From the NCBI GenBank assembly GCA_934120715.1, contig CAKOUW010000002.1:78564-142563 (forward strand): a stretch of 64,000 nucleotides of DNA, in the 5' to 3' direction. Shown here piece after piece: positions 8,503 to 64,000 of the stretch (positions are counted from its first letter, which is position 1; each line of letters begins with the position of its first letter). Source of the DNA: an uncultured Bacilli bacterium. Lineage in GTDB: Bacteria; Bacillota_I; Bacilli_A; RF39; UBA660. The notes under the pieces are model-generated. The model ran no database searches and was not told the DNA's origin. It saw only the letters and a list, made by a program, of their open reading frames with translations. A program made the translations under genes and the position numbers.

Positions 8503-10740
8503 ATGATATTGATGTTTTCAAAATTTGATGAAGATGCTCAAAAAGTTTTAGTTATGGCCAAAAAGGAAATGAGTTTGTTGAAACATCCATATGTTGGTAG
8601 TGAGCATCTTTTATTATCAATTTTGCATAATATAGATTTAGAGGTTACACAATTGTTAAATGAATACCAGATAACTTATGAAAAATATAGAGATGAAATT
8701 ATCAGGGTTATTGGGAAGGGTAAAGTTAGTAATAGTTGGTATTTGTATACTCCATTATTAAAGAGAATAATAGAGAATGCTGTTTTAGATAGTAAAGAAG
8801 ATAATAGTATTGTAACTGTGGAAAAACTATTTATTTCTTTATTAGAAGAAGGTGATGGTGTTGCGAATAGAATTTTACTTGGTATGAATGTTGATACTGA
8901 TTTATTGTATGAAAAATTTTCTAATAGAATGTCTTATCATAATGGTAAAAGAAAGAGTAGTCTATTGTTAGAAGAATATGCTACTGATTTGAATAAGAAA
9001 TATATTGATGATGGTTTTGATCCTGTTATTGGTAGAGATGATAAGGTTATAAGATTGATTGAGATCTTATTAAGAAGAACTAAAAATAATCCTTTATTAA
9101 TAGGAGATGCTGGTGTTGGTAAAACGGCTATTGTTGAGGAATTGGTTAGGCGAATAGTAAATGGTAGGGTTCCAAGAAAACTTGAAAATAATAGGGTTCT
9201 AAGTATATCTATGGCAGGTTTAATTTCTGGCACTAAGTATCGGGGTGAATTTGAGGAGCGTATAAATAAAATTATTAGTGAATTAGAAAGGGAAAAAGAT
9301 ATAATTTTATTTATAGATGAGATACATACTTTAGTAGGAGCTGGTGGTGCTGAGGGAGCAATTGATGCTTCAAATATTTTAAAACCATATTTGGCTAGGG
9401 GAAAAATTAGAATTATTGGTGCTACTACTACTGGTGAATATAAAAAGTATATGGAAAAGGATAAGGCCTTAGATAGAAGATTTCAAAAAGTTTATATAGA
9501 GGAGCCAACTGCTTATGATACTGAAAAAATACTTTTAAAACTTAGAGAAATTTATGAAAATTATCATGGAGTAAAAATAGATGATGAAATTATTAAATTA
9601 ATTGTTAATGTAGCTGAAAGATATGTTAATACGGGAAAATTTCCAGATAAGGCTATTGATATTTTAGATGAAGCTTGTTGCAAGACGGTGATTGTAGATA
9701 ATTCTTTTGAAGCTAAGCAGAAGCAATTATTAGTTAAGATAAATGATATTAAAAGTGAGAAGAATAAGGCAATTATGAATCACGATTATAGACTTGCTAG
9801 TTCGTTGAAAGAGCAACAAATGGGATTAGAGAGTAAACTTAATAAAAATTTTATTAAGAGTATGAATAACAATGTAGTCAAGGCTATTACTAGTGATATT
9901 GTTTATGATGTTGTTTATGCTAAAACAAAAATTCCTGTTAAAGATTTAATTGAGTTTGATAGAAATAGCATTTATAAGAGTTTGACGGATATTGTTAAAG
10001 GGCAAGATGTGGCTATTAATAGTTTATTAGATGTGACTTTGAGCCATAAAATTAATAAAAGAGTACCATATTCTCTATTATTAGTTGGTAAAAGTGGTGT
10101 TGGAAAAACATTTTTGGTAAAGGAGTATGCTAGATTATTATATCCTAAAGATGCATTTATTAGAATCGACATGAGTGAATTTAAGGAAAGACACACAATA
10201 AGCAAAATAATAGGGTCTCCTCCGGGGTATGTTGGTTTTAGTGAGAACAACTATGTCTTAGATAAAGTTAAAAATAATCCATATTCTGTTATTTTACTTG
10301 ATGAGATAGAAAAAGCACATCCTGATGTTTTAAAATTATTTTTACAAGTTTTTGATGATGGTCATATGACAGACTCATCAGGTGAGGTTATTAATTTTGC
10401 AAATACTACTATATTTATGACTTCTAATCTTGGAGCTAATTCTAGGTCAGTTGGATTTTTAAGTAGAAATGATGTTGTTTCAAATAAGTTTAAATCTTTT
10501 TTAGGAGTGGAATTTGTTAATAGAATTGATAGGATAATATATTTTAATTCTATTGATTCTAAAACAATCGGTAATATTATACGAGATAGGGCTTTGAATT
10601 TAGGCCTTGATAAAAAAATTATTTCCACAGAATTTGTGGATAAAGTAAAAAAAGAATGTAATTATGATGAATTTGGTGCTCGACATGTGGATAAAGTTTT
10701 ACGCAATTATTTAAATGACGAAATAAATATTAATCCTTAG
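8503..10740 (+). CDS. clpC: ATP-dependent Clp protease ATP-binding subunit ClpC-like (Clp_N repeats, D1, short M-domain, D2)
   Basis: Clp N-domain, D1 Walker A GDAGVGKTA, D2 Walker A GKSGVGKT and Walker B ILLDEIEKA, and a GYVGF segment. Confidence 0.85.
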   Translation: MILMFSKFDEDAQKVLVMAKKEMSLLKHPYVGSEHLLLSILHNIDLEVTQLLNEYQITYEKYRDEIIRVIGKGKVSNSWYLYTPLLKRIIENAVLDSKEDNSIVTVEKLFISLLEEGDGVANRILLGMNVDTDLLYEKFSNRMSYHNGKRKSSLLLEEYATDLNKKYIDDGFDPVIGRDDKVIRLIEILLRRTKNNPLLIGDAGVGKTAIVEELVRRIVNGRVPRKLENNRVLSISMAGLISGTKYRGEFEERINKIISELEREKDIILFIDEIHTLVGAGGAEGAIDASNILKPYLARGKIRIIGATTTGEYKKYMEKDKALDRRFQKVYIEEPTAYDTEKILLKLREIYENYHGVKIDDEIIKLIVNVAERYVNTGKFPDKAIDILDEACCKTVIVDNSFEAKQKQLLVKINDIKSEKNKAIMNHDYRLASSLKEQQMGLESKLNKNFIKSMNNNVVKAITSDIVYDVVYAKTKIPVKDLIEFDRNSIYKSLTDIVKGQDVAINSLLDVTLSHKINKRVPYSLLLVGKSGVGKTFLVKEYARLLYPKDAFIRIDMSEFKERHTISKIIGSPPGYVGFSENNYVLDKVKNNPYSVILLDEIEKAHPDVLKLFLQVFDDGHMTDSSGEVINFANTTIFMTSNLGANSRSVGFLSRNDVVSNKFKSFLGVEFVNRIDRIIYFNSIDSKTIGNIIRDRALNLGLDKKIISTEFVDKVKKECNYDEFGARHVDKVLRNYLNDEININP

Positions 10741-44152: not shown

Positions 44153-44531
44153 GGGGCTGATTAGGTTTCGACGGGAATATTAGAGCGCAGATGGCAAGTC
44201 GATTGCTCACGTAATGAGCACAAAAAAATAAACGCAAATAAAGTTAAAAACGCAGTAGCTAATTTGTTTGGTGGAAACCAAGCAGTTGCTTTTGCCTAAT
44301 AATATAAGGCCTGCACTTTTTTCAATTTTTATCTAGGAAATTGGAAGAGGTTCATTTTTACTAGATTATAGTTATCTTTTGTCTTGAAGATAAACTGAAC
44401 TTAATAGACTAGTATATTGTTTTGGTCGTTAACTACTTGAATGATATATGAAATTAATTAGTTAACTAAACTTGTAGAGGTTTGCGTAGCTGTATTTTCG
44501 GACAGGAGTTCGATTCTCCTCAGCTCCACCA
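44153..44531 (+). ncRNA. ssrA: tmRNA (ssrA)
   Basis: The 5' end ggggctgattaggtttcgacggg and 3' end ggacaggagttcgattctcctcagctccacca (T-arm plus CCA) are present. An internal tag ORF gca aat aaa gtt ... gct ttt gcc taa taa encodes ANKVKNAVANLFGGNQAVAFA*. An extended -10 tgatataat lies at 44134-44142. Confidence 0.85.
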
Positions 44532-45740: not shown

Positions 45741-46374
45741 ATGTTTTTAGACACTGTAAAAAAAAATAGAAAATATTAAGTTTATAACAGACGGTAAATG
45801 GGATTGGGATCATGGACTAGGGCATTACAAACGTGTAGCTGAATATGTAAAAACAATTTTATTACAATTAGGAGCTAACGAAAGAACAGTTGATTTAGGA
45901 ATGACCGCTACGCTTTTGCATGATATTGGTTTATCAAAAGGAGATAAAATCGATCATGCTGTAGAAAGTAGTAAAATATTTATTAATTTTATTGATAAAA
46001 GTGATATTACACATTATGAAGAAGATACTTTAAGGCAGGCTATTCTTGATCACTCTAAAGGAAATAATATTCAATCTTTAATAGGATTGAGTTTGGTCCT
46101 AGCCGACAAATTAGATGTAACCTATCATAGAACCAAAAATTCTAGTATTCAAGATAAAATGAATAAGGAAATTCAAAAGATTCAAAGCGTTGATATAAGT
46201 ATTACTGATAAAAATCTTATAGTACAATATACTACTGATGATAATTTTGATATTAATATTTTAAAAGATTGGCCAAAAGCAATTACTGTTCCATATAGAG
46301 CGTCAAAATATTTAAAGAAAAATTATAGATTTATAGTTAATAATATGCAAATTGATATTTTAAACTATTTGTAA
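45741..46374 (+). pseudogene. HD-domain phosphohydrolase interrupted by a frameshift at an A9 homopolymer (45758-45766)
   Basis: ATG 45741 reads MFLDTVKKN and then hits a stop. The +1 frame continues open as ...KWDWDHGLGHYKRVAEY...TATLLHDIG (H...HD motif) to 46374. With 8 As it would be a single ~210-aa HD protein. Confidence 0.55.
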
Positions 46375-46396
46375 TATAAAGTAGGATGATGATAAT

Positions 46397-47167
46397 TTGA
46401 AAAAAAGAATAGCATTACTAGCCGATATTCATGGTAATTTAGAAGCGTTAGAGTCAATATTGGAAAATATAAAAAAACAGGATATAGATGAAATAATATG
46501 TTTAGGAGATTCAATTGGTATTGGCCCTAATTCAAAGGAATGTATAGATTTATTAATCGATAATAATGTTAAATCCGTTTTAGGTAATTATGAAATATAT
46601 TTATTAAAAGGGACAAATTTCGACTCTTCTATTGTGGGAGAGGAAAAAGAACATTATAAATGGGTTAAAGATTCATTAACTGATAGAGAAATTACTTATA
46701 TAGAAAAGTGCCCGTTTTATTATCAAATAAATATAGAATATGAACATTTAAAATTTAGTAAAAAATATATTTTCTGTCACTATTTGATTAATAGTGAAAA
46801 TAGTATTTATCCCTTTGAAAAGAATCATCTAAAAAGAGACATTAATTTGTGGAAGAAGTATAATAATGATAATATTACTTATTTTATAGGTCATCTTCAT
46901 GAATCTTTTAATGTTAATGAGGTAGATGGTATATCTGGTGATTTTATAGAAGATGATGGAGCCCTAACTAATATTGAAGTTGTTGATAGTGCTGGATGTA
47001 CAAAAGACGAATACACTTCTTACATGATTTTAGAGATTTCAAAGAATATAAGTTATTATAGGAAAAAAATTAAATATGATAGAGGAAAGTTTGTTAATAA
47101 AGTATTGAATATTGAATTTCTGGATAAGCAAAATATACTTAAATATTTTTATGGCATAGAAAAATAA
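46397..47167 (+). CDS. calcineurin-like metallophosphoesterase
   Basis: LADIHGN...CLGDSIG...GNYE...GHLHE motifs. A TTG start follows RBS aagtagga. Confidence 0.75.
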   Translation: MKKRIALLADIHGNLEALESILENIKKQDIDEIICLGDSIGIGPNSKECIDLLIDNNVKSVLGNYEIYLLKGTNFDSSIVGEEKEHYKWVKDSLTDREITYIEKCPFYYQINIEYEHLKFSKKYIFCHYLINSENSIYPFEKNHLKRDINLWKKYNNDNITYFIGHLHESFNVNEVDGISGDFIEDDGALTNIEVVDSAGCTKDEYTSYMILEISKNISYYRKKIKYDRGKFVNKVLNIEFLDKQNILKYFYGIEK

Positions 47168-47330
47168 AAGAATTAAGAAGATAATAAAGCAATGATATTA
47201 ATTTATGTATAATTGCAAAGCTATATAATTCATTTTCTATTGATTGAAATATTATTGTTATCATGGTATAATTTCCGTATAAAGTATGATATGTTAATAG
47301 AATCTATTACAGTAGGGAGAAATTATATTT

Positions 47331-49199
47331 ATGATTGAAAGTTTGGGTTTTCCTATAATTGGTTTGCTTTTTTTAATTTTAGTATCAATCATTTTCTTGA
47401 AGAGAAAGAGGTATAAAACATTTGAAAATGATATTTTTACTGTTTTACTGTTTTTTACTTTGATTATGTCAGTACTTGGAATAGTATGTACTTTAACGAT
47501 GGCTAATCGAGAAAATATTCCAATTTTTAATGAGGTGTTATGTAGAATATATGTGTTTGGGATTATTGCGTGGATGTCATTGATATTAGCGTATTCGTGG
47601 AGTTTAGGGCGTAATTTGAAGTATGAAAAGCTTTCTCAAATATTTAAGGAACGTTATATAAGAGCGTTAGTTATTTTTACTATAGTTACTTATATTGTAT
47701 CTTTATTCTATGATTTAACTTTTACATCAGCATATAATGATTCGGTATATATTATTGGAGGAGAGGGCCAATTTGCTATATATAGCTTTGTTGTAATAAT
47801 GGTTGTTAGTACTTTGTATATATTATTGGTAAAGAAGAAAAATCTTCCTTTAACAAGACGATTACCATTATTTTTCTTTGTATTCTATTTATTATTAGTT
47901 TCTATTCTTCAAATAACTGTTTATAATTTTAATGATGTAACTTATCTTTATTGTTTGTGTGTTATTGCTATATACTTTTCTATAGAAAATCCTGATGTTC
48001 AATTAATAGAACGACTTAAAGAAACAAATAAAAATACGGAGTTAGCTCTTAAGAATAGGACTGATTTTTTATTAGAAATGTCTAATGAAATAAGGACACC
48101 TCTTAATTCAATTGTTGGATTCAGTCAATCAATTATAAATGAGAAAAATATTTCTGAAGAATCTTTTAAAAATGATATTGAATATATTAATGATTCTTCA
48201 AAAGGACTATTAAATACTATAAATAATATTCGAGAATTTTCAACTATGGATGCTATAGATAATGTTGTCAATGTGGAACCATTTTCAATTAGTGATATTG
48301 TTACTGATATAGAACAATATGTAAAATCAAAATTGTATAAAGATGTTCAATTTAATGTTGATATTGATAAAGGACTTCCTAAAGTTTTGATTGGTGATAG
48401 GGGAAAAATTTTAAAGATTTTAATAGGATTAATAGGTAATAGTATAAGGTTTACGCAATCAGGTGAAATTGAATTAAAAATTGCTGGTATTAGTAAACAA
48501 GATCATATTGATATGCATTTTACGGTTAATGATACTGGTGTTGGAATGAGAAAAAATGAGCTTGAATCATTGACTAATTATCTTGGTAAGCATGATGTTG
48601 AGAATGAAATATCTAATAATAGTGTTGGTATTGGACTACTTGTTATAAAGAACTTGGTTAAACTTTTAGATGGTGAGATAACTTTTACTAGTAACTATGG
48701 AATTGGTTCTACTTTTGATGTAATAATAAAATGTAGGATTTGTGAAGATAACAAGATTATAGAAGAAGTTTTAACTAAGAAGGATAATGTTAATTATATT
48801 GATTGCTCAAAATATAGTGTTTTACTAATAGATAATGGCGATATATCTTCACGAGCAAATTATAATCTACTTAAAAAATTTAAATTTAATATTGATACTT
48901 GTAAAAGTGGATTAGAAAGTATTGAGAAAATTAAATCAGGTTCTCATTATGATTTATTAATAATAGGTAATAATAGTTTTGAACTATCTGCTGTTGAAAC
49001 AATTGAAAAGATTAAGAAGTTAAACAATTATAAAATACCTAAAGTTTTAGTTGAAATATCAAATGATATTAAATATCAAAATAAATATTTAGATGATGGA
49101 TTTACTGATTTTTTATTAAATCCAATAGATGAATTAGAACTTATAAAGTTAATAAATAAATATTTTGATGATATTGTGGGTGGTGACAATAATGTTTAA
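47331..49199 (+). CDS. membrane sensor histidine-kinase-like / pseudo-receiver hybrid with H-box His replaced by Asn
   Basis: 6-7 N-terminal TMs. The HisKA-like box LLEMSNEIRTPLNSIVGF has Asn (codon 48084-48086) where the consensus S-H-E-L-RTPL has His. HATPase_c N/G1/G2 boxes are intact. The C-terminal REC-like domain lacks the phospho-Asp (IIGNN). Confidence 0.7.
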   Translation: MIESLGFPIIGLLFLILVSIIFLKRKRYKTFENDIFTVLLFFTLIMSVLGIVCTLTMANRENIPIFNEVLCRIYVFGIIAWMSLILAYSWSLGRNLKYEKLSQIFKERYIRALVIFTIVTYIVSLFYDLTFTSAYNDSVYIIGGEGQFAIYSFVVIMVVSTLYILLVKKKNLPLTRRLPLFFFVFYLLLVSILQITVYNFNDVTYLYCLCVIAIYFSIENPDVQLIERLKETNKNTELALKNRTDFLLEMSNEIRTPLNSIVGFSQSIINEKNISEESFKNDIEYINDSSKGLLNTINNIREFSTMDAIDNVVNVEPFSISDIVTDIEQYVKSKLYKDVQFNVDIDKGLPKVLIGDRGKILKILIGLIGNSIRFTQSGEIELKIAGISKQDHIDMHFTVNDTGVGMRKNELESLTNYLGKHDVENEISNNSVGIGLLVIKNLVKLLDGEITFTSNYGIGSTFDVIIKCRICEDNKIIEEVLTKKDNVNYIDCSKYSVLLIDNGDISSRANYNLLKKFKFNIDTCKSGLESIEKIKSGSHYDLLIIGNNSFELSAVETIEKIKKLNNYKIPKVLVEISNDIKYQNKYLDDGFTDFLLNPIDELELIKLINKYFDDIVGGDNNV

Positions 49200-51012
49200 T
49201 ACAATTATATTTTCAATAAGTAATTTATTGCTGGCAATATTGTTGTTAATCGTTTATATTTTTAAAGTAAAAGAAAAAAATATTAATAATATATTATATA
49301 ATTCATTATTAATTTGCTTGATTGTAATTTTGGTAACTGAAATTGTGTCAGTATATACAATTTATAATAATCAATTATTTCCATTATTGAATGAAGTGAT
49401 ATGTAGAATACGTGGTGTAGGTATAATTATATGGGCTATGTTAATATCCTTATATTTAATATCTTTAAGTACTAATCATAATTATGAAGAATTTAAAAAA
49501 GTGTTACATAAAAATTATTATATATTACCTATATATTTGTTAATTATAGTCTGTTTTTTCTTTTTTAAATATGACTATGTTATATTGAATGATACTGCAT
49601 ATTTAAAGGGATCTGCTAGTATATATATATTTATGTGTATTATTTTAATATCACTGTTCTGTATAATATTTATTCCAGATAGTATTTTTAGTAAGTACAG
49701 TAAAAAAATGATAGCTTTGTTTTTATTATTAGAATTAATAGTAATTTTAATGTTATCTTATACTCTTCCATATGTATATTTTGCTACAACTGTTTTAACA
49801 TTAAATACTTATATCTTGTATTTTGTAACTGAAAATCCTGATTTATATGCAATAAAACAGCTAGAAAAAGCAAATGATATTATAGAAAATCTTAATACTA
49901 GTAAGATGGACTTTTTTAATAACATTACTAATGAAATAAGATCTTCAGTTCAATCAATAGTAAATTTAAGTGATATTTTGTTAGAGAGTCCTTATGATAG
50001 AGAAAAGATTTTACCAGATGTAAATAGTATATTTTATACAGGAAATAATTTAAATGCAATTATTACGAATGTTTTAGATATATCGAAAATTGATTATGAT
50101 TTGGATTGTTTAAATGAAGAAGAATATGATTTAAAAAGTTTAATTTTAGATTTGATGGTTATGTTCGAAGAAATGAATAATAAAAATATTAATTTGAATA
50201 TTATTTGTGATGAAAATGTACCTAGAAGATATATTGGTGATAGAAATAAAATTTATAAAATTTTATTAAATTTATTGGATAATTCAATTAAATATACTTA
50301 TACTGGGAGAGTTTCATTAAAGATAGAATGCTTAGTAAAAGATAAGAATTGTTTATTAAAATTTTGTGTATCTGATACTGGTGTTGGTTTAAAAGAAAAT
50401 GAATATAATAAAGTTTTAAATGAATTGTCTGATTTAGATAAACATACGTATAATGGTAAAGAATATGTTGGACCTGGTCTTATTATTGTAAAAAAGTTTG
50501 TTGATATTATGAATGGAAAAATTACTTTTACAAGTGACTATGGTGCTGGGACAAAATTTTATGTGGAATTGCCACAAAAAATTGTTGATAATACTGTTAT
50601 TGGAACTATAAATATGGAAAATGTGATAGATTATAAAAATTATTCTTCTTTGAAAGTATTAATAGTTGATAATGGCAATTTGGATTTAAAGTTAATGAAA
50701 ACATTTTTAAATCCTTATAAGTTTAGCGTTGATACTTCGTTAAGTGTTAAAGATTTCATTTATAAGATAAAACAAGGTAATAGATATGCTCTTATATTTA
50801 TTGATCAAATGATGTTAAAAGAGGATGATATAGAATTAATAGAAGTATTGGAAAAATTGTCTGATATTTTTGTAATTCCTCCAATAATAGTTTTAACATC
50901 TGATTATTTTATGTTGCAGCATGATAAGAAAAAATTTATATGTGATTCTTTGATGAAGCCAATTAATAATATTAAATTGGATGAAATTATAACTAAGTAT
51001 CTTGATAAATAA
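49192..51012 (+). CDS. paralogous membrane histidine-kinase-like / receiver hybrid, also with H-box His replaced by Asn
   Basis: Same architecture. Its H-box NNITNEIRSSVQSI has Asn at 49930-49932. HATPase_c is intact, and the C-terminal REC retains the conserved D (LIFIDQMM), T/S and KP. ATG 49192 follows ggtggtga and overlaps the upstream stop. Confidence 0.7.
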   Translation: MFNTIIFSISNLLLAILLLIVYIFKVKEKNINNILYNSLLICLIVILVTEIVSVYTIYNNQLFPLLNEVICRIRGVGIIIWAMLISLYLISLSTNHNYEEFKKVLHKNYYILPIYLLIIVCFFFFKYDYVILNDTAYLKGSASIYIFMCIILISLFCIIFIPDSIFSKYSKKMIALFLLLELIVILMLSYTLPYVYFATTVLTLNTYILYFVTENPDLYAIKQLEKANDIIENLNTSKMDFFNNITNEIRSSVQSIVNLSDILLESPYDREKILPDVNSIFYTGNNLNAIITNVLDISKIDYDLDCLNEEEYDLKSLILDLMVMFEEMNNKNINLNIICDENVPRRYIGDRNKIYKILLNLLDNSIKYTYTGRVSLKIECLVKDKNCLLKFCVSDTGVGLKENEYNKVLNELSDLDKHTYNGKEYVGPGLIIVKKFVDIMNGKITFTSDYGAGTKFYVELPQKIVDNTVIGTINMENVIDYKNYSSLKVLIVDNGNLDLKLMKTFLNPYKFSVDTSLSVKDFIYKIKQGNRYALIFIDQMMLKEDDIELIEVLEKLSDIFVIPPIIVLTSDYFMLQHDKKKFICDSLMKPINNIKLDEIITKYLDK

Positions 51013-51106
51013 TGAAATTTTAGAGGGTTATGAGTAATAACCTTTTTAATTTGGATTACTAGTATTTATATAGGCTTTTTTGCATAATATTATCATGGAG
51101 GTATTT

Positions 51107-51712
51107 ATGTATCAGTTGTCTATATTACCATATTCTTTTCAAGAATTAGAACCTTTTATTGATACGCATACTATGGGGCTACATTATCATAAACATGAAA
51201 TGGCATATTTAAATAATTTAAATAATTTGTTAAAGAAGTATAACTATAATTATCGTTATAGTCTTAATGATCTTGTTTATCATATTAATGAATTTAATGA
51301 CGATGATAAGCCTAATATTTTATTTAATCTTGGTGGTGTATTAAATCATGAACTGTATTGGAAGAGTATGAATAAAAATAGTAATTTACCTAAGGGGAAA
51401 TTAAAAAATAAGATAGATAGCCAATATGGTGATTTTAATAATTTTTGGAATGAGTTTAAGAAAATGGCTTTATCTTTAAAGGGCTCCGGTTATACATTTT
51501 TAGTATTAAGAAAAGATGGTAATTTGGAGATAGTTAATTTTTATAATCAGGATATTCCTTTATTGTATGGGTATATTCCATTATTTAATATTGATTTGTG
51601 GGAACATGCATATTATTTAAATTATGAAAATGACAGATCTAAATATATTGATAATTTTAGAGATATTGTTGATTTTACTAATGCTAGTTTTTTATATGAT
51701 AATATGATTTAA
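51107..51712 (+). CDS. sodA: Fe/Mn-family superoxide dismutase (divergent)
   Basis: The four metal ligands are conserved (H in LHYHKH, H in NHELYW, D and H in DLWEHAYY). ATG 51107 follows ggaggt. Confidence 0.8.
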   Translation: MYQLSILPYSFQELEPFIDTHTMGLHYHKHEMAYLNNLNNLLKKYNYNYRYSLNDLVYHINEFNDDDKPNILFNLGGVLNHELYWKSMNKNSNLPKGKLKNKIDSQYGDFNNFWNEFKKMALSLKGSGYTFLVLRKDGNLEIVNFYNQDIPLLYGYIPLFNIDLWEHAYYLNYENDRSKYIDNFRDIVDFTNASFLYDNMI

Positions 51713-51803
51713 TTATATATTTTAATTATTTTATTTGTACTTCACATTTTTGTGGGGTTTTTTAAATGTAAATTATGTTATAATTATATGGAGGTGATTT
51801 TAG

Positions 51804-53036
51804 GTGGATAAAATTTTGATGAATGCATTAAAAAAAGAGAGTAAGAGACAAGAAGAGAATATTGAACTTATTGCTTCAGAAAATTATGTTTCTAAAGATA
51901 TTTTAAAGTTACAGGGAAGTATTCTTACTAATAAATATGCTGAGGGGTATCCTGATAATAGATATTATGGTGGATGCCAATATATAGATATTTTTGAAAA
52001 GAAAGCAATAGAATATGTAACCAAGTTATTTAATTGTAAATTTGCTAATGTTCAACCACATTCTGGTAGTAGTGCTAATATGGCTGTTTATAGAGCTTTA
52101 ATTAATCATGGTGATAAAGTTATGGGAATGAATTTATCACATGGAGGACATTTAACTCATGGACATCCTATTAATTTTAGTGGTCTTGACTATGAGGTTG
52201 TTTCCTACAGTGTTAATGAGAAAACTGGATTAATTGATTACGATGAACTAGAAAAATTGGCTTTGTCTGAAAAGCCTAAAATGATTATAGCTGGATGTAG
52301 TGCTTATTCTAGAATAATAGACTTTAAAAAATTTAGAGAAATAGCTGATAAATGTGGAGCTTATTTAATGGTTGATATGGCCCATATTGCTGGCTTAGTG
52401 GCAGCTGGATTACATCCTAGTCCTTTTCCATATGCTGATGTTGTTACTTCTACTACGCACAAGACTTTGAGAGGCCCTCGTGGTGGAATTATTTTAACTA
52501 ATAGTCCAGAATTAATTAAAAAGATAAATAAGGTGGTTTTTCCTGGTATTCAGGGTGGCCCTTTAATGCATGTTATAGCTGCTAAAGCACAATGTTTTTA
52601 TGAGGCTTTACAGGATGATTTTATTGTTTATCAAAAACAGATTATTAAAAATATGAAAGCTTTATCTGATTGTTTAATGAAAAAAGGTGTGAAAGTAGTA
52701 TCAGATGGTACTGATAATCATTTAATTTTAGTTGATGTTAAGACTTCTTTTGGATTAACTGGTAAGGTTGCTGAAAAAGTATTAGATGATATTAATATTA
52801 CTTGTAATAAAAACACGATTCCATATGATAGTGAATCACCATTTATAACTAGTGGTATTAGAATTGGAAGTGCAGCTATGACGACTAGGGGATTAAAAGA
52901 AGATGAATTTAATTTGATCGGAGAAATTATTTATAAAAGTTTAACTAATATTGATAACTTAAAAATACAAAAAGAATGTAGGGAAGAAGTTCTTGCTTTA
53001 ACTAAAAAATTCCCAATATATAAAAGAGTAAAATAA
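51804..53036 (+). CDS. glyA: serine hydroxymethyltransferase
   Basis: IELIASEN and the PLP-Lys region [17 protein letters not shown] 51804 follows ggaggtga; an alternative ATG lies at 51819. Confidence 0.93.
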
Positions 53037-58600: not shown

Positions 58601-59608
58601 ATGAAAAAGAAAATTTTAATTCTTCTTCTCTTGATAACAGGTATTTTTATTTCTGCTGGATGCGGCAAATATGGTGAAAAAGATGTTGTCAAAGATTTAG
58701 GCAATAAGATAAATAAGGCTAATGCTTATAAATTAGATGGTAATCTTGAAATTGTTAATAATGATGAGGTCTATAATTATAAGATTGAAGTTAGCTACAA
58801 AAAAGATAATTATTATAAGGTTAGTTTGACTAATGTTAATAATAATCATACACAGGTAATTTTAAAAAATAATGATGGAGTGTATGTGTTAACACCTTCT
58901 CTTAATAAGAGTTTTAAATTTCAAAGTGATTGGCCTTACAGTAATTCACAGATTTATTTATTGAGTGCTTTACTAAGTGATATAACAGATGATAATAATA
59001 GGACTTTTAAAGAAACAGATAATAGTTATATATTTTCTACTAAGGTTAATTATCCTAATAATAAAGATTTAGTTAGACAAGAGATAGAATTATCTAAAAA
59101 GTTGAAATTTAAGACAGTTAAGGTTTATAATTCTAAAGATGTATTATGCATGACTATGAAGTTTAACGATATTGATTATTCACCAACATTTAAGAAAAAT
59201 TATTTTGAATTGGACACTATCATGAGTACTTATATCATAGATTCTGATGAGGTATTGGAAACAAGTAACTTAGATTCTTCTATATATCCTCTTGTTGTAC
59301 CTACTGGTACTAAACTTACTAGTGAGGAAAAACTAAAGAAGGATACAGGTGAACGAATAATTCTAACATTTGATGGGGAAAAACCATTCCTATTAGTAGA
59401 AGAGACAGCAAATGTTGAAGAGGAGTTTACTATTATTCCTACATATGGGGAACCATATCAGTTGATGGATACGCTAGGAGTTATGACTGATAATTCATTG
59501 ACATGGACTAGTAATGGAATTGAATACTATATTGTAAGTGATGTCTTAAGTCAGAATGAACTGATTGAAGTTGCTCAATCAATTAATGTGTTACCAACTA
59601 TGAAGTAG
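58601..59608 (+). CDS. putative lipoprotein (lipobox ...ISAGC)
   Basis: Signal peptide plus a lipobox Cys, and no clear family. Confidence 0.55.
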   Translation: MKKKILILLLLITGIFISAGCGKYGEKDVVKDLGNKINKANAYKLDGNLEIVNNDEVYNYKIEVSYKKDNYYKVSLTNVNNNHTQVILKNNDGVYVLTPSLNKSFKFQSDWPYSNSQIYLLSALLSDITDDNNRTFKETDNSYIFSTKVNYPNNKDLVRQEIELSKKLKFKTVKVYNSKDVLCMTMKFNDIDYSPTFKKNYFELDTIMSTYIIDSDEVLETSNLDSSIYPLVVPTGTKLTSEEKLKKDTGERIILTFDGEKPFLLVEETANVEEEFTIIPTYGEPYQLMDTLGVMTDNSLTWTSNGIEYYIVSDVLSQNELIEVAQSINVLPTMK

Positions 59609-59688: not shown

Positions 59689-60201
59689 ATGGCAAAAAAA
59701 AATAAAAGTTTAAATTATGGTAATACAGAATTTAGTTTACAATTTAAGAATATTATTATAGTTAGTATAATTGTTTTGGTTTCTTTAGGATTGTTTTATT
59801 TATTAACAATTGCTCTTTTGGGTAAGAAGCCTACGGTTGATACATCTGGTGGTAGTAGTGATACAACTATTCAAAATCAAGAGATTTTATTAGGTTCTAG
59901 TTTTAATATTAGTTCTGATAGATATATTGTTTTATATTATGCTTCAGATGATCAAGATAGTTCTTCTGATATTAAGTCTTTAGCTACTTCTTACAGGGCT
60001 AAGGATGATGCTTTAAGTCTTTATACTGTTGATTTAAGCGATGCTTTAAATAAAGCTTTTGTAACTACTGATGAGTCTAATCCTGATGCTAGTAATGCTA
60101 GTGAAATGAGAGTTAAGAATCCAACACTTATTGTATTTGAAGATGGAAAAATTAACGAGTATATAGAGGGATTTGATTCTATTAAAGATTATTTAAGTTA
60201 A
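59689..60201 (+). CDS. hypothetical membrane-anchored protein
   Basis: ORF with one TM and an S/D-rich region. Confidence 0.4.
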   Translation: MAKKNKSLNYGNTEFSLQFKNIIIVSIIVLVSLGLFYLLTIALLGKKPTVDTSGGSSDTTIQNQEILLGSSFNISSDRYIVLYYASDDQDSSSDIKSLATSYRAKDDALSLYTVDLSDALNKAFVTTDESNPDASNASEMRVKNPTLIVFEDGKINEYIEGFDSIKDYLS

Positions 60202-60220: not shown

Positions 60221-60297
60221 GCCTCAATAGCTCAGCTGGTTAGAGCACTTGACTGTTAATCAAGGGGTCCTAGGTTCAAGTCCTAGTTGGGGCGCCA
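60221..60297 (+). tRNA. tRNA-Asn (anticodon GUU)
   Basis: Cloverleaf folded by hand: acceptor GCCTCAA/TTGGGGC, D-arm gctcagctggttagagc, anticodon loop ctGTTaa, T-loop ttcaagt, discriminator G and encoded CCA. Confidence 0.9.
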
Positions 60298-60463
60298 TTT
60301 ATTTTAGAATATGTTACATTTAAGATATCATAAGATATCTTTATTTATTGAAAAAATTTAATAATGTTATTTTAAAGAATTAGCTACCTATATAATTGGG
60401 TAGTTTTTATTGTAAAAGTTTGCATTTTATGTTATTATATCATGCATTAGGGGAGGTTTATGC

Positions 60464-62032
60464 ATGTTAAATTTTGATGTAGGGACTTTATTATCAAATA
60501 TGACTGACAATATGTTACATAATACAAATGAGATTTTTAAATTATTTGGTAGTTTACTTTATACTGATGAAGAAGGTCAATCTATATTGCATATTTTGGT
60601 TGCTGATAATTTTGATGAGGAAAAATCTTTTCTTGCTATTAAGTCGTTGTTGCAATCTGGACTAAGTCCCAATGCTGTATCGAGTTACAATTATAATTAT
60701 AATTTTATTCAAACTGCTTTGTGTGCTGGTCATAGTGAGAAATTTATTTTAGATATTATTACTGAATCATTAAAATATGGTTTGGATGTTAATCATGTTG
60801 ATGCCAATAAAGATACTATTATGCATGCTGCAATATATAGTAATAATTATTCAGGTAGTCTTGAAAAGATTTACGATTTGTTGTGCGAGAACGGTTTTGA
60901 TTCATCTTTAAGGAATGATGAAGGAAGAACTTTACTTGAAGCTTTGAGTTGTCAAGGAAACTATTCTAGTGAACAAATAGAAGGATTTAAGCAAAAGTTT
61001 GAAGAAAGATATCCTGCATCTAATAATTGTGCTCAAACAAAGGAAGATGAGGTTGACATACCAGTAGGACAAGAAAGCTCTATTTATCAAACATTGTCTA
61101 ATGATGATATTTTAGAACTTGAAAAATATGGTCGAGTGTTAAATCAAAAAGATTATATAGTTGAACCTGCTATCGGAAGAGATAAAGAATTGAAAAATCT
61201 TATGATAGTTTTAGCACAGGATAAAAAGAATCCATTGATTGTTGGAGAATCAGGTGTAGGAAAAACCACAATAGTGGATGAACTTGCTTATAGAATTATA
61301 AATGAAAATGTTCCTGGATTTTTACGCGATAAAATAATTTTGGAAGTTAATCCAAGTGATATTGTTGCTGGTTCTCAATACGTTGGAATGTTTGAAGATA
61401 AGATGACTAAATTATTGAGGTTGTGTGAAGAACTTGATGTAATAATTTTCATCGATGAAATTCACGAAATATATGGTATGGGTTCATCAGCTAATAAAGA
61501 TAGTGATATGGCATCTATGTTGAAACGTTATATTGATAGATCCGATTTAAAAGTAATTGGTATAACAAGTGAGGATGAATACGAAAAGTATTTTGCTCAT
61601 GATGCTCTTAAAAGAAGATTTGAAAAAGTCACTGTTAAAGAACCTGTAGATGAAGATCTACACCAAATAGTAGATAAAGTAATTGGAGATTATTATGTAA
61701 AAAATAGTGTTTTTTTTGAAGATGAAAGTGTGAGAGAGCAAGTGGTGGCTATTATATTAGCTGCTACAGGAAAAAGTTCTAGGGTTTATAATGATGTAGT
61801 TAATAATCCAGATTTATCAATATCTATTGTTGATAGAGCATTTGCATTGGCAAAATTTTATGATAGTGAATTTGTTACACTAGAACACTTTGTGGAAAGT
61901 TTTAAATCCTGTGATAGAATTTATGAATTTTCAAAAGAACAAGCGATAGCTAATTTAAGAAGTTTAGATACTAGTATATCTAAACCAACTCAGAAGATTT
62001 TTAAAATGGACTGTAATCGTTTTAAAAAATAG
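60464..62032 (+). CDS. ankyrin-repeat protein fused to a single ClpA/ClpC-type D1 AAA+ ATPase module
   Basis: The N-terminal ~180 aa carry ANK-like repeats (ILHILVA..., TALCAGH..., MHAAIYS...). The C-terminal part aligns with ClpC D1: GRDKELKNLM..., Walker A GESGVGKTT, Walker B IIFIDEIHE and the RRF sensor. There is no N-domain, M-domain or D2. Confidence 0.7.
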   Translation: MLNFDVGTLLSNMTDNMLHNTNEIFKLFGSLLYTDEEGQSILHILVADNFDEEKSFLAIKSLLQSGLSPNAVSSYNYNYNFIQTALCAGHSEKFILDIITESLKYGLDVNHVDANKDTIMHAAIYSNNYSGSLEKIYDLLCENGFDSSLRNDEGRTLLEALSCQGNYSSEQIEGFKQKFEERYPASNNCAQTKEDEVDIPVGQESSIYQTLSNDDILELEKYGRVLNQKDYIVEPAIGRDKELKNLMIVLAQDKKNPLIVGESGVGKTTIVDELAYRIINENVPGFLRDKIILEVNPSDIVAGSQYVGMFEDKMTKLLRLCEELDVIIFIDEIHEIYGMGSSANKDSDMASMLKRYIDRSDLKVIGITSEDEYEKYFAHDALKRRFEKVTVKEPVDEDLHQIVDKVIGDYYVKNSVFFEDESVREQVVAIILAATGKSSRVYNDVVNNPDLSISIVDRAFALAKFYDSEFVTLEHFVESFKSCDRIYEFSKEQAIANLRSLDTSISKPTQKIFKMDCNRFKK

Positions 62033-62074: not shown

Positions 62075-62103
62075 AAAAACTAATCTCATATTGGATTAGT
62101 TTT
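62075..62103. terminator. bidirectional terminator between convergent genes
   Basis: aaaaactaatctcatattggattagttttt. Confidence 0.65.
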
Positions 62104-62116
62104 AGGGCAGTTTTTA

Positions 62117-62635
62117 TTAAAAAATGTGCTCTTTTATTATACAACTAACAATTAATTGCTTTTCTTTATTAGTGGGACTACATGTTGTTAAAACTAGTTG
62201 ATTGTCATATTCTTCTTTGAAATTTATAGTTCCATTTTTTTCTTCTTCCCAAATATTTTTTACTATATATTTATTTTTATTATTATCTAGATTTATGATT
62301 ATTTCATCATTGATATTTAATTGGTTTAAATTTTTAAAATATGCTGCTTTTCCAGTTCCTGAATGAGCTGCTAAAACAATGATATGATTATTTTTGTATA
62401 AGAGCGCGACATTTTTATCAACATCATTGTTAGGACTTTTAATATCATATAAGTCATTGTTTACTTTTATTTTTGGTATTATGATATTTCCAATGGGCTT
62501 TTCTTTTTTTTCTATGTAGTTATATCCTATTTTTGCTCTAGAAATTCTTTTTTTGATTTTATTAGATGGTATATTGTAGTTCATTAGTCCTGAAAACAGT
62601 ATAATGATTATGGCTATTGTAAGCTTCTTGTCCAT
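62117..62635 (-). CDS. sortase (class B-like)
   Basis: N-terminal TM anchor, His in VLAAHSG, catalytic Cys in LVLTTCSP, ~170 aa. Confidence 0.75.
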   Translation of the reverse strand: MDKKLTIAIIIILFSGLMNYNIPSNKIKKRISRAKIGYNYIEKKEKPIGNIIIPKIKVNNDLYDIKSPNNDVDKNVALLYKNNHIIVLAAHSGTGKAAYFKNLNQLNINDEIIINLDNNKNKYIVKNIWEEEKNGTINFKEEYDNQLVLTTCSPTNKEKQLIVSCIIKEHIF

Positions 62636-64000
62636 AAAATTACTAATATTCCTCTAATTAAATCAATTATATTAATTTCATTTGTACCTGTATTTGGTAC
62701 TTTTATTTTATAATCAGTTAATTTGAAGACTTGCTCTTTATTAGAATCTATTATTATTTTGAATGGTTCAATAATTTCATAACCAGTAATAGTTGTTGTT
62801 TGCTTTATCGTATATTCCCCATATGGAAGTTCAATTTCTATTTCACCGTTTTCATCTGTTATAATTGTTTTAATTAATTTACCATCTTTATTGTATATTT
62901 CGAATGAGGCATTTGGTTCATTATATGATCCAGTTTCATTTTGATATACTTTATTTATGATTACTTTGGCTTTTATTACTTTATTGGTTAGATTTAATTC
63001 TATTGATGGATTTTCTTTACTTAATTCAAATTCATAAATGTTGTTGTCTAGTTCATAACCAGTACCTGCTTTTTTTTCTTTTATATAATATTTTTGATAT
63101 GTTAAATTTGATATTTCAGCGGTAGAGTTTTCATCTATTTTTATTTCTTGTACTAGTTCTTTATTAGCATTAAAAATTTCATATATAGCTCCTTGGAGAT
63201 TTGCATCTCCGCTACTTTCAGTAGTGTTGTTATCATAATCTAATTTTTTAATTATGATGTTTGTTTCATCTATATTTACATTTACATTTACTGTTAATGG
63301 ATTTAAGTCACCTGTTTCCATTAGGTTTTGACTATTTGGAGAGTTATAAAAAATTATTGGTTTATTGTAGTATGTGTCTTTTCTTTCTAATATAAAATTA
63401 TATGTTCCTTTTTTGGAACTATCTATTATTAATTTATTATTATCTATTTTAGCAATATTGTTATTGATTGAATAATTGTTTAGAATGTTGTTATAATCTG
63501 TTATAGTTGTAGTTTCACCGACAACATAATTAAATGTTTTATCACTAAAACTTGGTATTATTTCATAATTATTTATTAAATTATTTATTTCGTTTATTTC
63601 ATCTTGATATATATTTATTCTATTTCCATTAAGTCTATCTGTAAAATAGAAATCTCCATCTGGCATAACTGTTTTCCAGATCATTAATTGCGTTATAGCA
63701 TACCATTTTATATCATAGTGATTTTTGTAATTATAGCCAAAGTGTGCAATTAATGATACCTTTTTTAGTTGCTCTTCTGACAGGTTTTCTGGCCTTGTAG
63801 ATGATGTATATGCTTCACTTTCTTTTATAGGTGTAAATGGTTCTAGGCAGTAGGCAAAATTGTTTGTGCCTTGTTGTCTTTGAACTCTGAATTGTTGATA
63901 ATATGTTATTCTATTTGGAGCAACTCTATTTACCCATATTCCCTGTATGAATTCTCCTTCATAAAATTTTTCATCACTTGCTTTGACGTTGATGTGTGTT
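62614..64000 (-). CDS. sortase-anchored surface adhesin, 5'-truncated by window end; thioester-domain-like N-terminal region plus Cna-B/SpaA-like repeats and a VPNTG sorting signal
   Basis: The minus-strand frame stays open upstream of the ORF-track Met to position 64000. It reads ...FAYCLEPF...AITQLMIW (a TED-like Cys motif and TQxxIW Gln motif), then GEYTIKQTTTITGYE Cna-B-like repeats. The C-terminus is KVPNTG followed by a hydrophobic segment and basic residues. Confidence 0.6.
   Translation of the reverse strand, partial: THINVKASDEKFYEGEFIQGIWVNRVAPNRITYYQQFRVQRQQGTNNFAYCLEPFTPIKESEAYTSSTRPENLSEEQLKKVSLIAHFGYNYKNHYDIKWYAITQLMIWKTVMPDGDFYFTDRLNGNRINIYQDEINEINNLINNYEIIPSFSDKTFNYVVGETTTITDYNNILNNYSINNNIAKIDNNKLIIDSSKKGTYNFILERKDTYYNKPIIFYNSPNSQNLMETGDLNPLTVNVNVNIDETNIIIKKLDYDNNTTESSGDANLQGAIYEIFNANKELVQEIKIDENSTAEISNLTYQKYYIKEKKAGTGYELDNNIYEFELSKENPSIELNLTNKVIKAKVIINKVYQNETGSYNEPNASFEIYNKDGKLIKTIITDENGEIEIELPYGEYTIKQTTTITGYEIIEPFKIIIDSNKEQVFKLTDYKIKVPNTGTNEINIIDLIRGILVILWTRSLQ

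Follow-up and report, generated by a model that had tools for sequence, protein, structure and literature searches.

Whether a Clp-type ATPase with a single AAA+ module, and with ankyrin repeats at its N-terminus, is a genuine molecular machine or the remnant of a longer gene is the question raised by a 522-codon gene found in a 64,000-nucleotide stretch of DNA (hereafter the window) from an uncultured Bacilli bacterium (contig CAKOUW010000002.1). A first-pass annotation, made from the sequence alone, had described the gene product as an ankyrin-repeat protein fused to a lone D1 module of the ClpC type, and had placed the gene on a possible island between a tRNA-Asn gene and a sortase/adhesin cluster. 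We found that the gene is intact and selectively maintained, that its product belongs to the ankyrin branch of an uncharacterized and far larger family of D1-only Clp-like proteins encoded by metagenome-assembled genomes (MAGs) of uncultured, low-GC gut "Bacilli" and "Mollicutes", and that in several relatives the ATPase gene forms an operon with a gene for a large second protein, which is absent from the window. Taking these observations together, we lean, with modest confidence, towards the view that the protein is a ClpP-independent single-ring remodeler guided by its ankyrin domain, which would act as an orphan in this genome and with a partner carrying an α-solenoid and a GNAT fold elsewhere.

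Comparisons with Pfam, the PDB, AlphaFold2 (AF2) models and Foldseek all bore out the combination of ankyrin repeats with a lone D1-type AAA+ module (positions of all domains and motifs are listed in Table 1). The Pfam AAA profile (PF00004) matched aa 258-389 (E = 9e-13; 49 bits, cut-off 21), while the best PDB matches were the D1 residues of ClpC, ClpC1, ClpA and ClpB (e.g., residues 154-401 of Bacillus subtilis ClpC; E = 2e-39). In the AF2 model, which was built on 20 family members and showed a mean predicted local distance difference test score (pLDDT) of 80, the AAA+ part superposed on the D1 modules of ClpC, ClpA and ClpB over approx. 268 columns (approx. 3 Å; 32-36% identity; Foldseek). 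The N-terminal part was identified as an ankyrin-repeat domain by Pfam Ank_4 (aa 97-130; 28.8 bits, cut-off 22.7), with Ank_2 and Ank_5 scoring under their cut-offs, and by designed ankyrin proteins (DARPins) in the PDB, which matched aa 56-167 with E-values down to 9e-15. The number of repeats proposed initially ("about three") proved too low, as the AF2 model shows four helix pairs (aa 41-47/52-64, 81-88/92-103, 119-125/133-142 and 157-163/169-182; pLDDT 82-95) in addition to an N-terminal cap pair; the period of 38-40 aa in this model is longer than the approx. 33 aa of canonical ankyrin repeats. Similarly, the D1 character of the C-terminal region stands, while its reported length of approx. 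340 aa does not: the region consists of a D1 module of approx. 255-280 aa, together with the linker and a 57-aa C-terminal extension.

The sequence and structural signatures of the AAA+ superfamily are all present in the protein, i.e., Walker A and Walker B motifs, the arginine pair R384-R385, and a large α/β subdomain followed by a lid; the intact state of these elements, which had already been noticed in the first reading, was evident from both the AF2 model and an alignment of 20 family sequences, from which residue conservation was read. In addition to the invariant Walker A motif, this alignment showed that F329, I330 and D331 of Walker B are invariant, that I327 and E332 are conserved in at least 90% of the sequences, and that position 328 is occupied by I, V or L. 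The entire K-R-R-F motif (K383 to F386) is invariant. In the segment equivalent to pore loop 1, G308 is invariant, V307 is nearly so, and position 306 carries Tyr, Phe or His.

The other parts of a ClpC-type protein were not found, as had also been proposed. No Pfam matches to Clp_N (PF02861), AAA_2 (PF07724), AAA_lid_9 or ClpB_D2-small were obtained for the ATPase, no [ILV]G[FL] motif typical of the ClpP-docking loop was seen on reading its sequence, and the chain stops 57 aa past the D1 lid. The NCBIfam profiles for ClpA, ClpB, ClpV, ClpK and ClpG matched solely through their D1 portions and far under their cut-offs; for example, only positions 137-413 of the 734 positions in the ClpA profile (TIGR02639) were aligned, with a score of 171.5 bits against a cut-off of 993, and the scores for ClpB (TIGR03346) and ClpV were 163.7 (cut-off 1232) and 141.8 (cut-off 885), respectively. 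The protein is thus not a member of ClpA, ClpB or ClpC, given these scores and the lack of Clp_N, D2 and docking loop. When the C-terminal 74 aa were searched alone against the PDB, no match was obtained. The BLAST alignment with the ClpC encoded in the window stops at the lid, whereas the HMMER alignments with PDB entries 6em8 and 4hse extend to query positions 508-514; a vestigial helical hairpin of the M-domain may therefore be present in this region.

Variation among alleles provides evidence that the ATPase gene is genuine. Contigs from independent assemblies, measuring up to 314 kb, encode an identical protein, and the 15 alleles that could be retrieved from the cluster at 90% identity, whose contigs reach 514 kb, all encode exactly 522 aa. 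Alleles differ most densely in the linker (8 of 32 positions, aa 184-215) and least in the AAA+ module (14 of 250 positions), and the ratio of nonsynonymous to synonymous substitution rates (dN/dS) was 0.37 in comparison with an allele with 95% identity (41 differences). These data show that the ATPase gene is intact and that its reading frame is maintained.

A search of 5.8 billion proteins yielded 541 relatives of the ATPase. The best 120 of these are mostly full-length proteins of 505-545 aa with 55-67% identity; those with names are designated "AAA family ATPase" or "ATP-dependent Clp protease ATP-binding subunit" and come from "Bacilli bacterium" MAGs, many of them from the human gut. An exhaustive HMMER search over 1.84 billion cluster representatives revealed more than 100 clusters (at 50% identity) that match aa 218-515 of the query, i.e., the D1 module and the C-terminal extension, with 190-570 bits; these scores exceed those of genuine ClpC D1 modules in the PDB (approx. 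135 bits). Pattern scans of genomes and metagenomes (using VGESGVGKT and other patterns) were swamped by ordinary Clp genes and contained only three family members (at loci L001, L013 and L093). Across the D1-only family the N-terminus varies, comprising between one and three ankyrin modules in tandem, unrelated helical domains, or no additional domain at all; members of this last type measure 305-330 aa and originate from "Mollicutes" or "Tenericutes" MAGs. We found no description of a bacterial protein that combines ankyrin repeats with a Clp D1 module in the literature; the architecture that comes nearest there is that of eukaryotic Skd3/CLPB.

Some individual family members showed further departures from the common layout. 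The ankyrin module is duplicated or triplicated ahead of a single D1 in P0002 (752 aa), P0242 (731 aa) and P0241 (903 aa); as the two ankyrin copies in P0002 are near-identical, the duplication there may be recent, or may stem from misassembly. Two proteins, P0308 (923 aa) and P0417 (924 aa), each contain two tandem D1-type modules. P0308 also carries a C-terminal FtsH-like HExxH motif (HETGHY, read from the sequence) and has no obvious membrane anchor, while P0417 has a precomputed match to Peptidase_M41; both look like soluble proteins in which a metalloprotease is fused to two D1 modules, an arrangement that fits an unfoldase role for the family. Three ankyrin-less D1-only members (L175, L176 and L177) have no solenoid-GNAT neighbor. 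A PF01996 (F420_ligase-like) gene is located immediately upstream of the ATPase gene in L177 and 3 kb downstream of it in L175, which may represent conserved synteny of the ankyrin-less branch.

The survey of gene neighborhoods among relatives provided no support for a link with either the tRNA gene or the sortase cluster, and revealed instead a two-gene operon. In seven relative lineages (L005, L007, L010, L011, L093, L174 and L180), an open reading frame (ORF) of 887-970 aa is located directly 3' of the ATPase gene. At the five loci where the gap between the two genes was measured (L005, L007, L010, L011 and L093) it comprises 13-23 nt and holds a ribosome-binding site, and in L174 and L180 the second gene likewise follows immediately downstream. 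The ATPase and its partner have diverged in step (65-84% and 60-81% identity, respectively), and many matches to the partner and to the ATPase were found on contigs of identical size. The partner family is small, with 179 matches; the best 120 listed are all at least approx. 60% identical, and the few that have a name are designated "hypothetical protein". Searches with the partner against Pfam (at E-values up to 5), PHROGs, PADLOC (at E-values up to 1) and PDB profiles gave no match. The AF2 model of the partner (pLDDT 76, from a shallow alignment) suggests an N-terminal α-solenoid and a C-terminal domain with a GNAT fold; invariant residues include T684-D685-C686-C687-F688, H721, W723, W725, D734 and E737.

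In the window, the place of the partner downstream of the ATPase gene is occupied by a convergent sortase gene, and tblastn searches with two partner proteins found no match in the window or in L003, which extends 8 kb beyond it. A second lineage, represented by P0099 (L179), likewise shows no partner in the 271 nt available downstream. P0058, P0071 and P0077 form a group with the window protein in a neighbor-joining tree. As P0071 has the partner gene downstream, and as P0058 and P0077 are encoded on contigs that match the sizes of contigs with partner matches, the adjacent partner was probably lost or moved in the lineage of the window. We compared the ankyrin domains of 119 family members at residues that are otherwise conserved in at least 95% of the family: 13 of these residues are replaced in the window protein and 9 in P0099, which thus rank first and second (median 0; 90th percentile 4). 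Outside the ankyrin domain, 4 and 7 conserved residues, respectively, are replaced (90th percentile 6), and neither protein is extreme in this respect. The changes in the window protein include D47A, Y50F, C55S, Y87C, Y90H, D115N, T122A, D127N and M161L. This pattern is suggestive and would be expected if the ankyrin domain contacts the partner.

These observations are consistent with a model in which the protein is a cytoplasmic ATPase that would assemble into a hexameric ring, where ATP hydrolysis through the Walker A and Walker B motifs, with arginine fingers acting in trans, would drive the pulling or remodeling of a client protein whose polypeptide would be gripped by the tyrosine of the pore loop. 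The ATPase would act independently of ClpP, since it lacks D2, the ring in which the docking loop resides, and its ankyrin domain would serve to recognize clients or partners, as it does in Skd3 (see below). For most members of the ankyrin branch, the solenoid-GNAT protein encoded next to the ATPase is the probable client or co-worker. The simplest model for species that carry both genes is that the ATPase would remodel or assemble this protein, or feed substrates to it. In the genome studied here, the ATPase is still kept intact and therefore presumably acts alone or with a partner encoded at an unlinked site. The architecture and its motifs, the family membership, the operon in relatives, the missing neighbor in the window and the intact state of all alleles are direct observations; ring formation, unfoldase activity, independence of ClpP and contact between the ankyrin domain and the partner are properties that we infer from the established mechanism of Hsp100 proteins.

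Several points weigh against this model. The functions of the family members are likewise inferred rather than shown, and in several Hsp100 proteins (ClpB/Hsp104) D1 alone oligomerizes poorly without D2. The dN/dS ratio was derived from just 41 differences. The assignment of the GNAT fold comes from an AF2 model on a shallow alignment, and the acetyl-CoA motif Q/RxxGxG/A was not seen by eye in the β4-α3 loop. The partner may lie elsewhere in the genome, as the search covered the window and 8 kb downstream of it. Finally, the contact between ankyrin domain and partner was deduced from a post hoc comparison of two orphan lineages, and the enrichment of replaced residues in the ankyrin domain, as compared to the rest of the window protein, is not significant (P = 0.18, Fisher's exact test).

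As it is tempting to regard a tight two-gene operon that occurs in a different context in every lineage examined as a mobile conflict module (of the anti-phage or toxin type), in which the ATPase would sense or activate, the GNAT-fold protein would be the effector and the copy in the window would be a remnant, we weighed this explanation against the remodeler model and consider it the main rival, albeit an unlikely one. At L093 (IMG/VR UViG_3300029743_000253), genes for a large serine recombinase, TnpV and a DNA methylase border the pair on one side (L093:554-5286), and the opposite side (L093:10365-13535) carries a second recombinase together with a Mob_Pre relaxase; the pair appears to be the cargo of an integrative mobilizable element that was labeled viral by IMG/VR. 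RhuM and Fic genes are located close to the pair at L180, and the ATPase shows a weak match to mad8 of PADLOC (1.5e-5). However, this match reflects generic P-loop similarity, the P-loop of PtuA (PADLOC-DB v2) matches too, and neither the ATPase nor the partner, for which the PADLOC, PHROG and Pfam searches were empty, belongs to a defense system known in PADLOC-DB v2. Moreover, the remaining loci in relatives, i.e., most of those found, are housekeeping contexts without markers of mobile elements, with the pair differently placed in each lineage; as the proteins are 55-85% identical, these differences may represent ordinary loss of synteny between genera. The preservation of the orphan in 15 intact alleles would also be unexpected for a useless remnant. 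It is still less probable that the ATPase is an accessory partner of ClpC/ClpP, i.e., an adaptor-like protein or a dominant-negative or modulatory subunit that mixes into ClpC rings. A true clpC gene is indeed present in the window (8503-10740; Clp_N, AAA, AAA_lid_9 and AAA_2 domains), as the first-pass annotation had pointed out, and its product is 38% identical to the ATPase, over D1 only. Yet the family keeps strongly conserved signatures of its own, namely NNPDL in the lid, a C-terminal extension and a basic tail, its members match one another far better than they match ClpC, and its conserved genomic partner is the solenoid-GNAT protein rather than clpC, clpP or mecA. The intact catalytic and pore-loop residues furthermore favor an autonomous motor over a poison subunit.

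Two explanations that had been raised for the locus at the outset fared worse. The ATPase gene does lie between the tRNA-Asn gene and a convergent sortase gene with a gene for a SpaA/TED pilin, as would be expected for the cargo of an island integrated at the tRNA and functionally tied to the sortase/pilin cluster; this context was, however, found solely in this species (L003, L004 and L173), and no relative outside the species shares it, with a tRNA-Asn gene adjacent to the ATPase gene in none of the seven related loci scanned for tRNAs. The GC content across the ATPase gene (0.30) is the same as that of the flanking core genes and the composition profile is flat, a search for repeats of the 3' end of the tRNA-Asn gene (allowing up to 3 mismatches) from the locus to 8 kb downstream found only the tRNA itself, and no integrase is present. 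A tRNA-linked island was thus rejected, and a functional tie to the convergently transcribed sortase cluster appears very improbable. The notion that the ORF is what remains of a longer clp gene, either as a decaying fragment or through an artefact (assembly error or frameshift), is hardly credible, as its only basis is the unusual single-ring architecture; the constant length of 522 aa in all 15 alleles from independent assemblies, the long contigs, the hundreds of full-length homologues and the dN/dS ratio below 1 exclude it, and the gene also has a good ribosome-binding site and a hairpin after its stop codon.

Among characterized proteins, the best functional analogy for the remodeler that we favor is provided by Skd3 (human CLPB or ANKCLP), a mitochondrial disaggregase which consists of N-terminal ankyrin repeats and a single Hsp100-type AAA+ module and acts as a stand-alone remodeler without ClpP (PMC7343390, PMC9934407). 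Disaggregation by Skd3 requires the ankyrin domain, and loss of Skd3 causes disease. The AAA+ module of Skd3 is of the D2 type (NBD2 and C-terminal domain), whereas that of the ATPase aligns to D1, and no Skd3 chain was present among the 60 best PDB matches of the ATPase; the ATPase is thus not a member of Skd3. As the two proteins differ in the type of their AAA+ module, and as one is bacterial while the other is eukaryotic and mitochondrial, their shared architecture looks convergent rather than orthologous.

The D1 modules of ClpC, ClpA and ClpB show 32-38% identity with the ATPase over approx. 250 residues and have the same fold, and they share with it the GRxxE...GExGVGKT lead-in, Walker B, the aromatic pore loop and the RRF arginine fingers. 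In contrast to these proteins, the ATPase lacks Clp_N, D2, the ClpP loop and a detectable M-domain, and has an ankyrin N-domain and a C-terminal extension of its own. ClpX and HslU resemble it in having a single AAA+ ring with a dedicated recognition domain, either N-terminal or inserted; their module is of the D2/ClpX type, however, and docks to ClpP or HslV, and neither feature is found in the ATPase. EccA of type VII secretion systems likewise combines a helical-repeat (TPR) N-domain with a single AAA+ module and acts on the partners of a dedicated system, but is of the CbxX/CfqX type; the NCBIfam EccA profile scored only 26 bits with the ATPase, against a cut-off of 467, and no type VII secretion genes were found nearby. 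The partner differs from NatA, NatB, NatC and other GNAT enzymes in that its two parts are contained in a single polypeptide, in that there is no sequence similarity to them (5-17% identity) and no obvious acetyl-CoA motif, and in that it is encoded beside an unfoldase-like gene.

Hsp100/Clp proteins are classified into double-ring members (ClpA, ClpB, ClpC, ClpE, ClpL and ClpV) and single-ring members (ClpX and HslU) with a D2-like module. A large family of lone D1 modules whose N-domains are swappable (ankyrin modules, up to three of them, helical domains of other types, or no such domain) sits outside this classification. Its ankyrin version reproduces the layout of Skd3/CLPB with the other nucleotide-binding domain and hence represents a natural test of what a single D1 ring can do, while its operon arrangement with the gene for a giant GNAT-fold protein is a hint that unfolding may be linked to protein acylation, for which we found no described precedent. 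One may speculate that the ankyrin-D1 ATPase and the solenoid-GNAT protein form an undescribed two-component machine, in which the ankyrin domain would link an Hsp100-type unfoldase to a giant enzyme resembling acyltransferases, as part of either a new pathway of protein modification or quality control or a mobile conflict or defense system, and in which orphans like the one studied here would have been re-tasked as ankyrin-guided remodelers, i.e., bacterial, D1-based counterparts of Skd3; this is a tentative proposal, which we regard as possible and, on balance, rather doubtful. The D1-only family is confined to uncultured gut lineages related to Bacilli and Mollicutes, whose proteome is largely unannotated. 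Both the architecture and the operon are novel and testable, and the copy in the window comes without the most intriguing component, the partner.

Table 1. Coordinates of the ankyrin-D1 ATPase gene, its domains and motifs, its flanking signals, and the partner genes in relatives (window positions unless a locus is given)
Feature	Coordinates	Strand	Basis
CDS, complete, ATG start, 522 aa; ankyrin-D1 single-ring Clp-like ATPase	60464..62032	+	ORF and Pfam/NCBIfam/PDB/AF2
Ankyrin-repeat domain, aa 1-183: N-cap helix pair and four repeats of approx. 38-40 aa	60464..61012	+	Pfam, DARPin matches, AF2
Linker, aa 184-210, disordered, variable length	61013..61093	+	pLDDT <50; gappy in family alignment; allele variation
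AAA+ large α/β subdomain, Hsp100 D1 type, aa 211-392	61094..61639	+	Pfam, NCBIfam, PDB, AF2, Foldseek
Walker A GESGVGKT, aa 261-268	61244..61267	+	Invariant in family alignment
Pore-loop-1 equivalent Q-Y-V-G, aa 305-308, aligned to K-Y-R-G of ClpC D1	61376..61387	+	
Walker B IIFIDE, aa 327-332	61442..61459	+	
Arginine-finger pair R384-R385, K-R-R-F motif	61613..61618	+	Invariant; aligned to ERRF of ClpC D1
AAA+ small (lid) subdomain, aa 393-465, with family signature NNPDLSISI(V/I)D	61640..61858	+	
Family-specific C-terminal extension, aa 466-522 (57 aa): two short helices and conserved flexible basic tail K-I-F-K-M-D-C-N-R-F-K-K	61859..62029	+	
tRNA-Asn(GTT), upstream of ATPase gene	60221-60297		
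Terminator-like hairpin and T-run in the gap between tRNA-Asn and ATPase gene: 9-bp stem, then TTTATTGT	60382..60405	+	Consensus scan
Promoter-like site: TTGTAA, 17 nt, TATTAT with TG extension; approx. 25 nt 5' of start codon	60410..60438	+	Consensus match
Ribosome-binding site AGGGGAGG, strong Shine-Dalgarno, 7 nt before start codon	60450..60457	+	Sequence reading
AT-rich hairpin AAAAACTAATC / GATTAGTTTT where ATPase and sortase genes converge	62075..62103	.	Direct reading
Partner genes in relatives	L005:9544-12417, L007:9608-12499, L010:6169-9033, L011:9611-12523, L093:7585-10248, L180:2118-4997		

The signals that flank the ATPase gene are listed in Table 1. The terminator-like hairpin downstream of the tRNA-Asn gene sets the ATPase gene apart from the upstream transcription unit. 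The promoter-like site between this hairpin and the gene represents weak evidence, being a consensus match of a kind that is equally common in shuffled sequence. The AT-rich hairpin beyond the stop codon is a plausible bidirectional terminator for the two convergent genes; it was not flagged by the terminator scan, which depends on G+C content. Given the terminator-like hairpin and promoter-like site upstream and the hairpin that precedes the convergent sortase gene downstream, the ATPase gene looks monocistronic.

Overall, the window represents ordinary core chromosome with approx. 29% GC, in which nearly all long ORFs are located on one strand; core genes include clpC, tmRNA, SHMT and cdaA/cdaR. 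The ClpC encoded at 8503-10740 (+) is a short housekeeping form of 745 aa, in which Pfam detects only one Clp_N repeat (aa 19-71); its exact sequence is absent from a collection of 15 billion proteins, possibly because gene callers used another start codon. The tmRNA gene is located at 44153-44531 (+) and encodes the tag peptide ANKVKNAVANLFGGNQAVAFA. The stretch with the most deviant composition (GC of 0.22-0.25 as compared to approx. 0.29-0.34 elsewhere) is found at 46000-52000 and does not include the ATPase region. Downstream of cdaA-cdaR, two ORFs without Pfam matches occupy the place that is often taken by glmM in the cdaA operons of Bacillota, i.e., a predicted lipoprotein of 335 aa with a lipobox-like N-terminus (LLLITGIFISAGC; 58601-59608, +) and a protein of 170 aa with a single predicted membrane helix (59689-60201, +). 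On the other side of the ATPase gene (62117-63684, -, and running past the end of the window; L003:9654-11581), the 3' end of a gene for a pilin- or adhesin-like protein, which contains SpaA and TED (thioester) domains, overlaps a sortase gene of 172 aa. The adhesin-like ORF comprises 356 aa in the window, where its start lies downstream of that of the 476-aa gene call on longer contigs.

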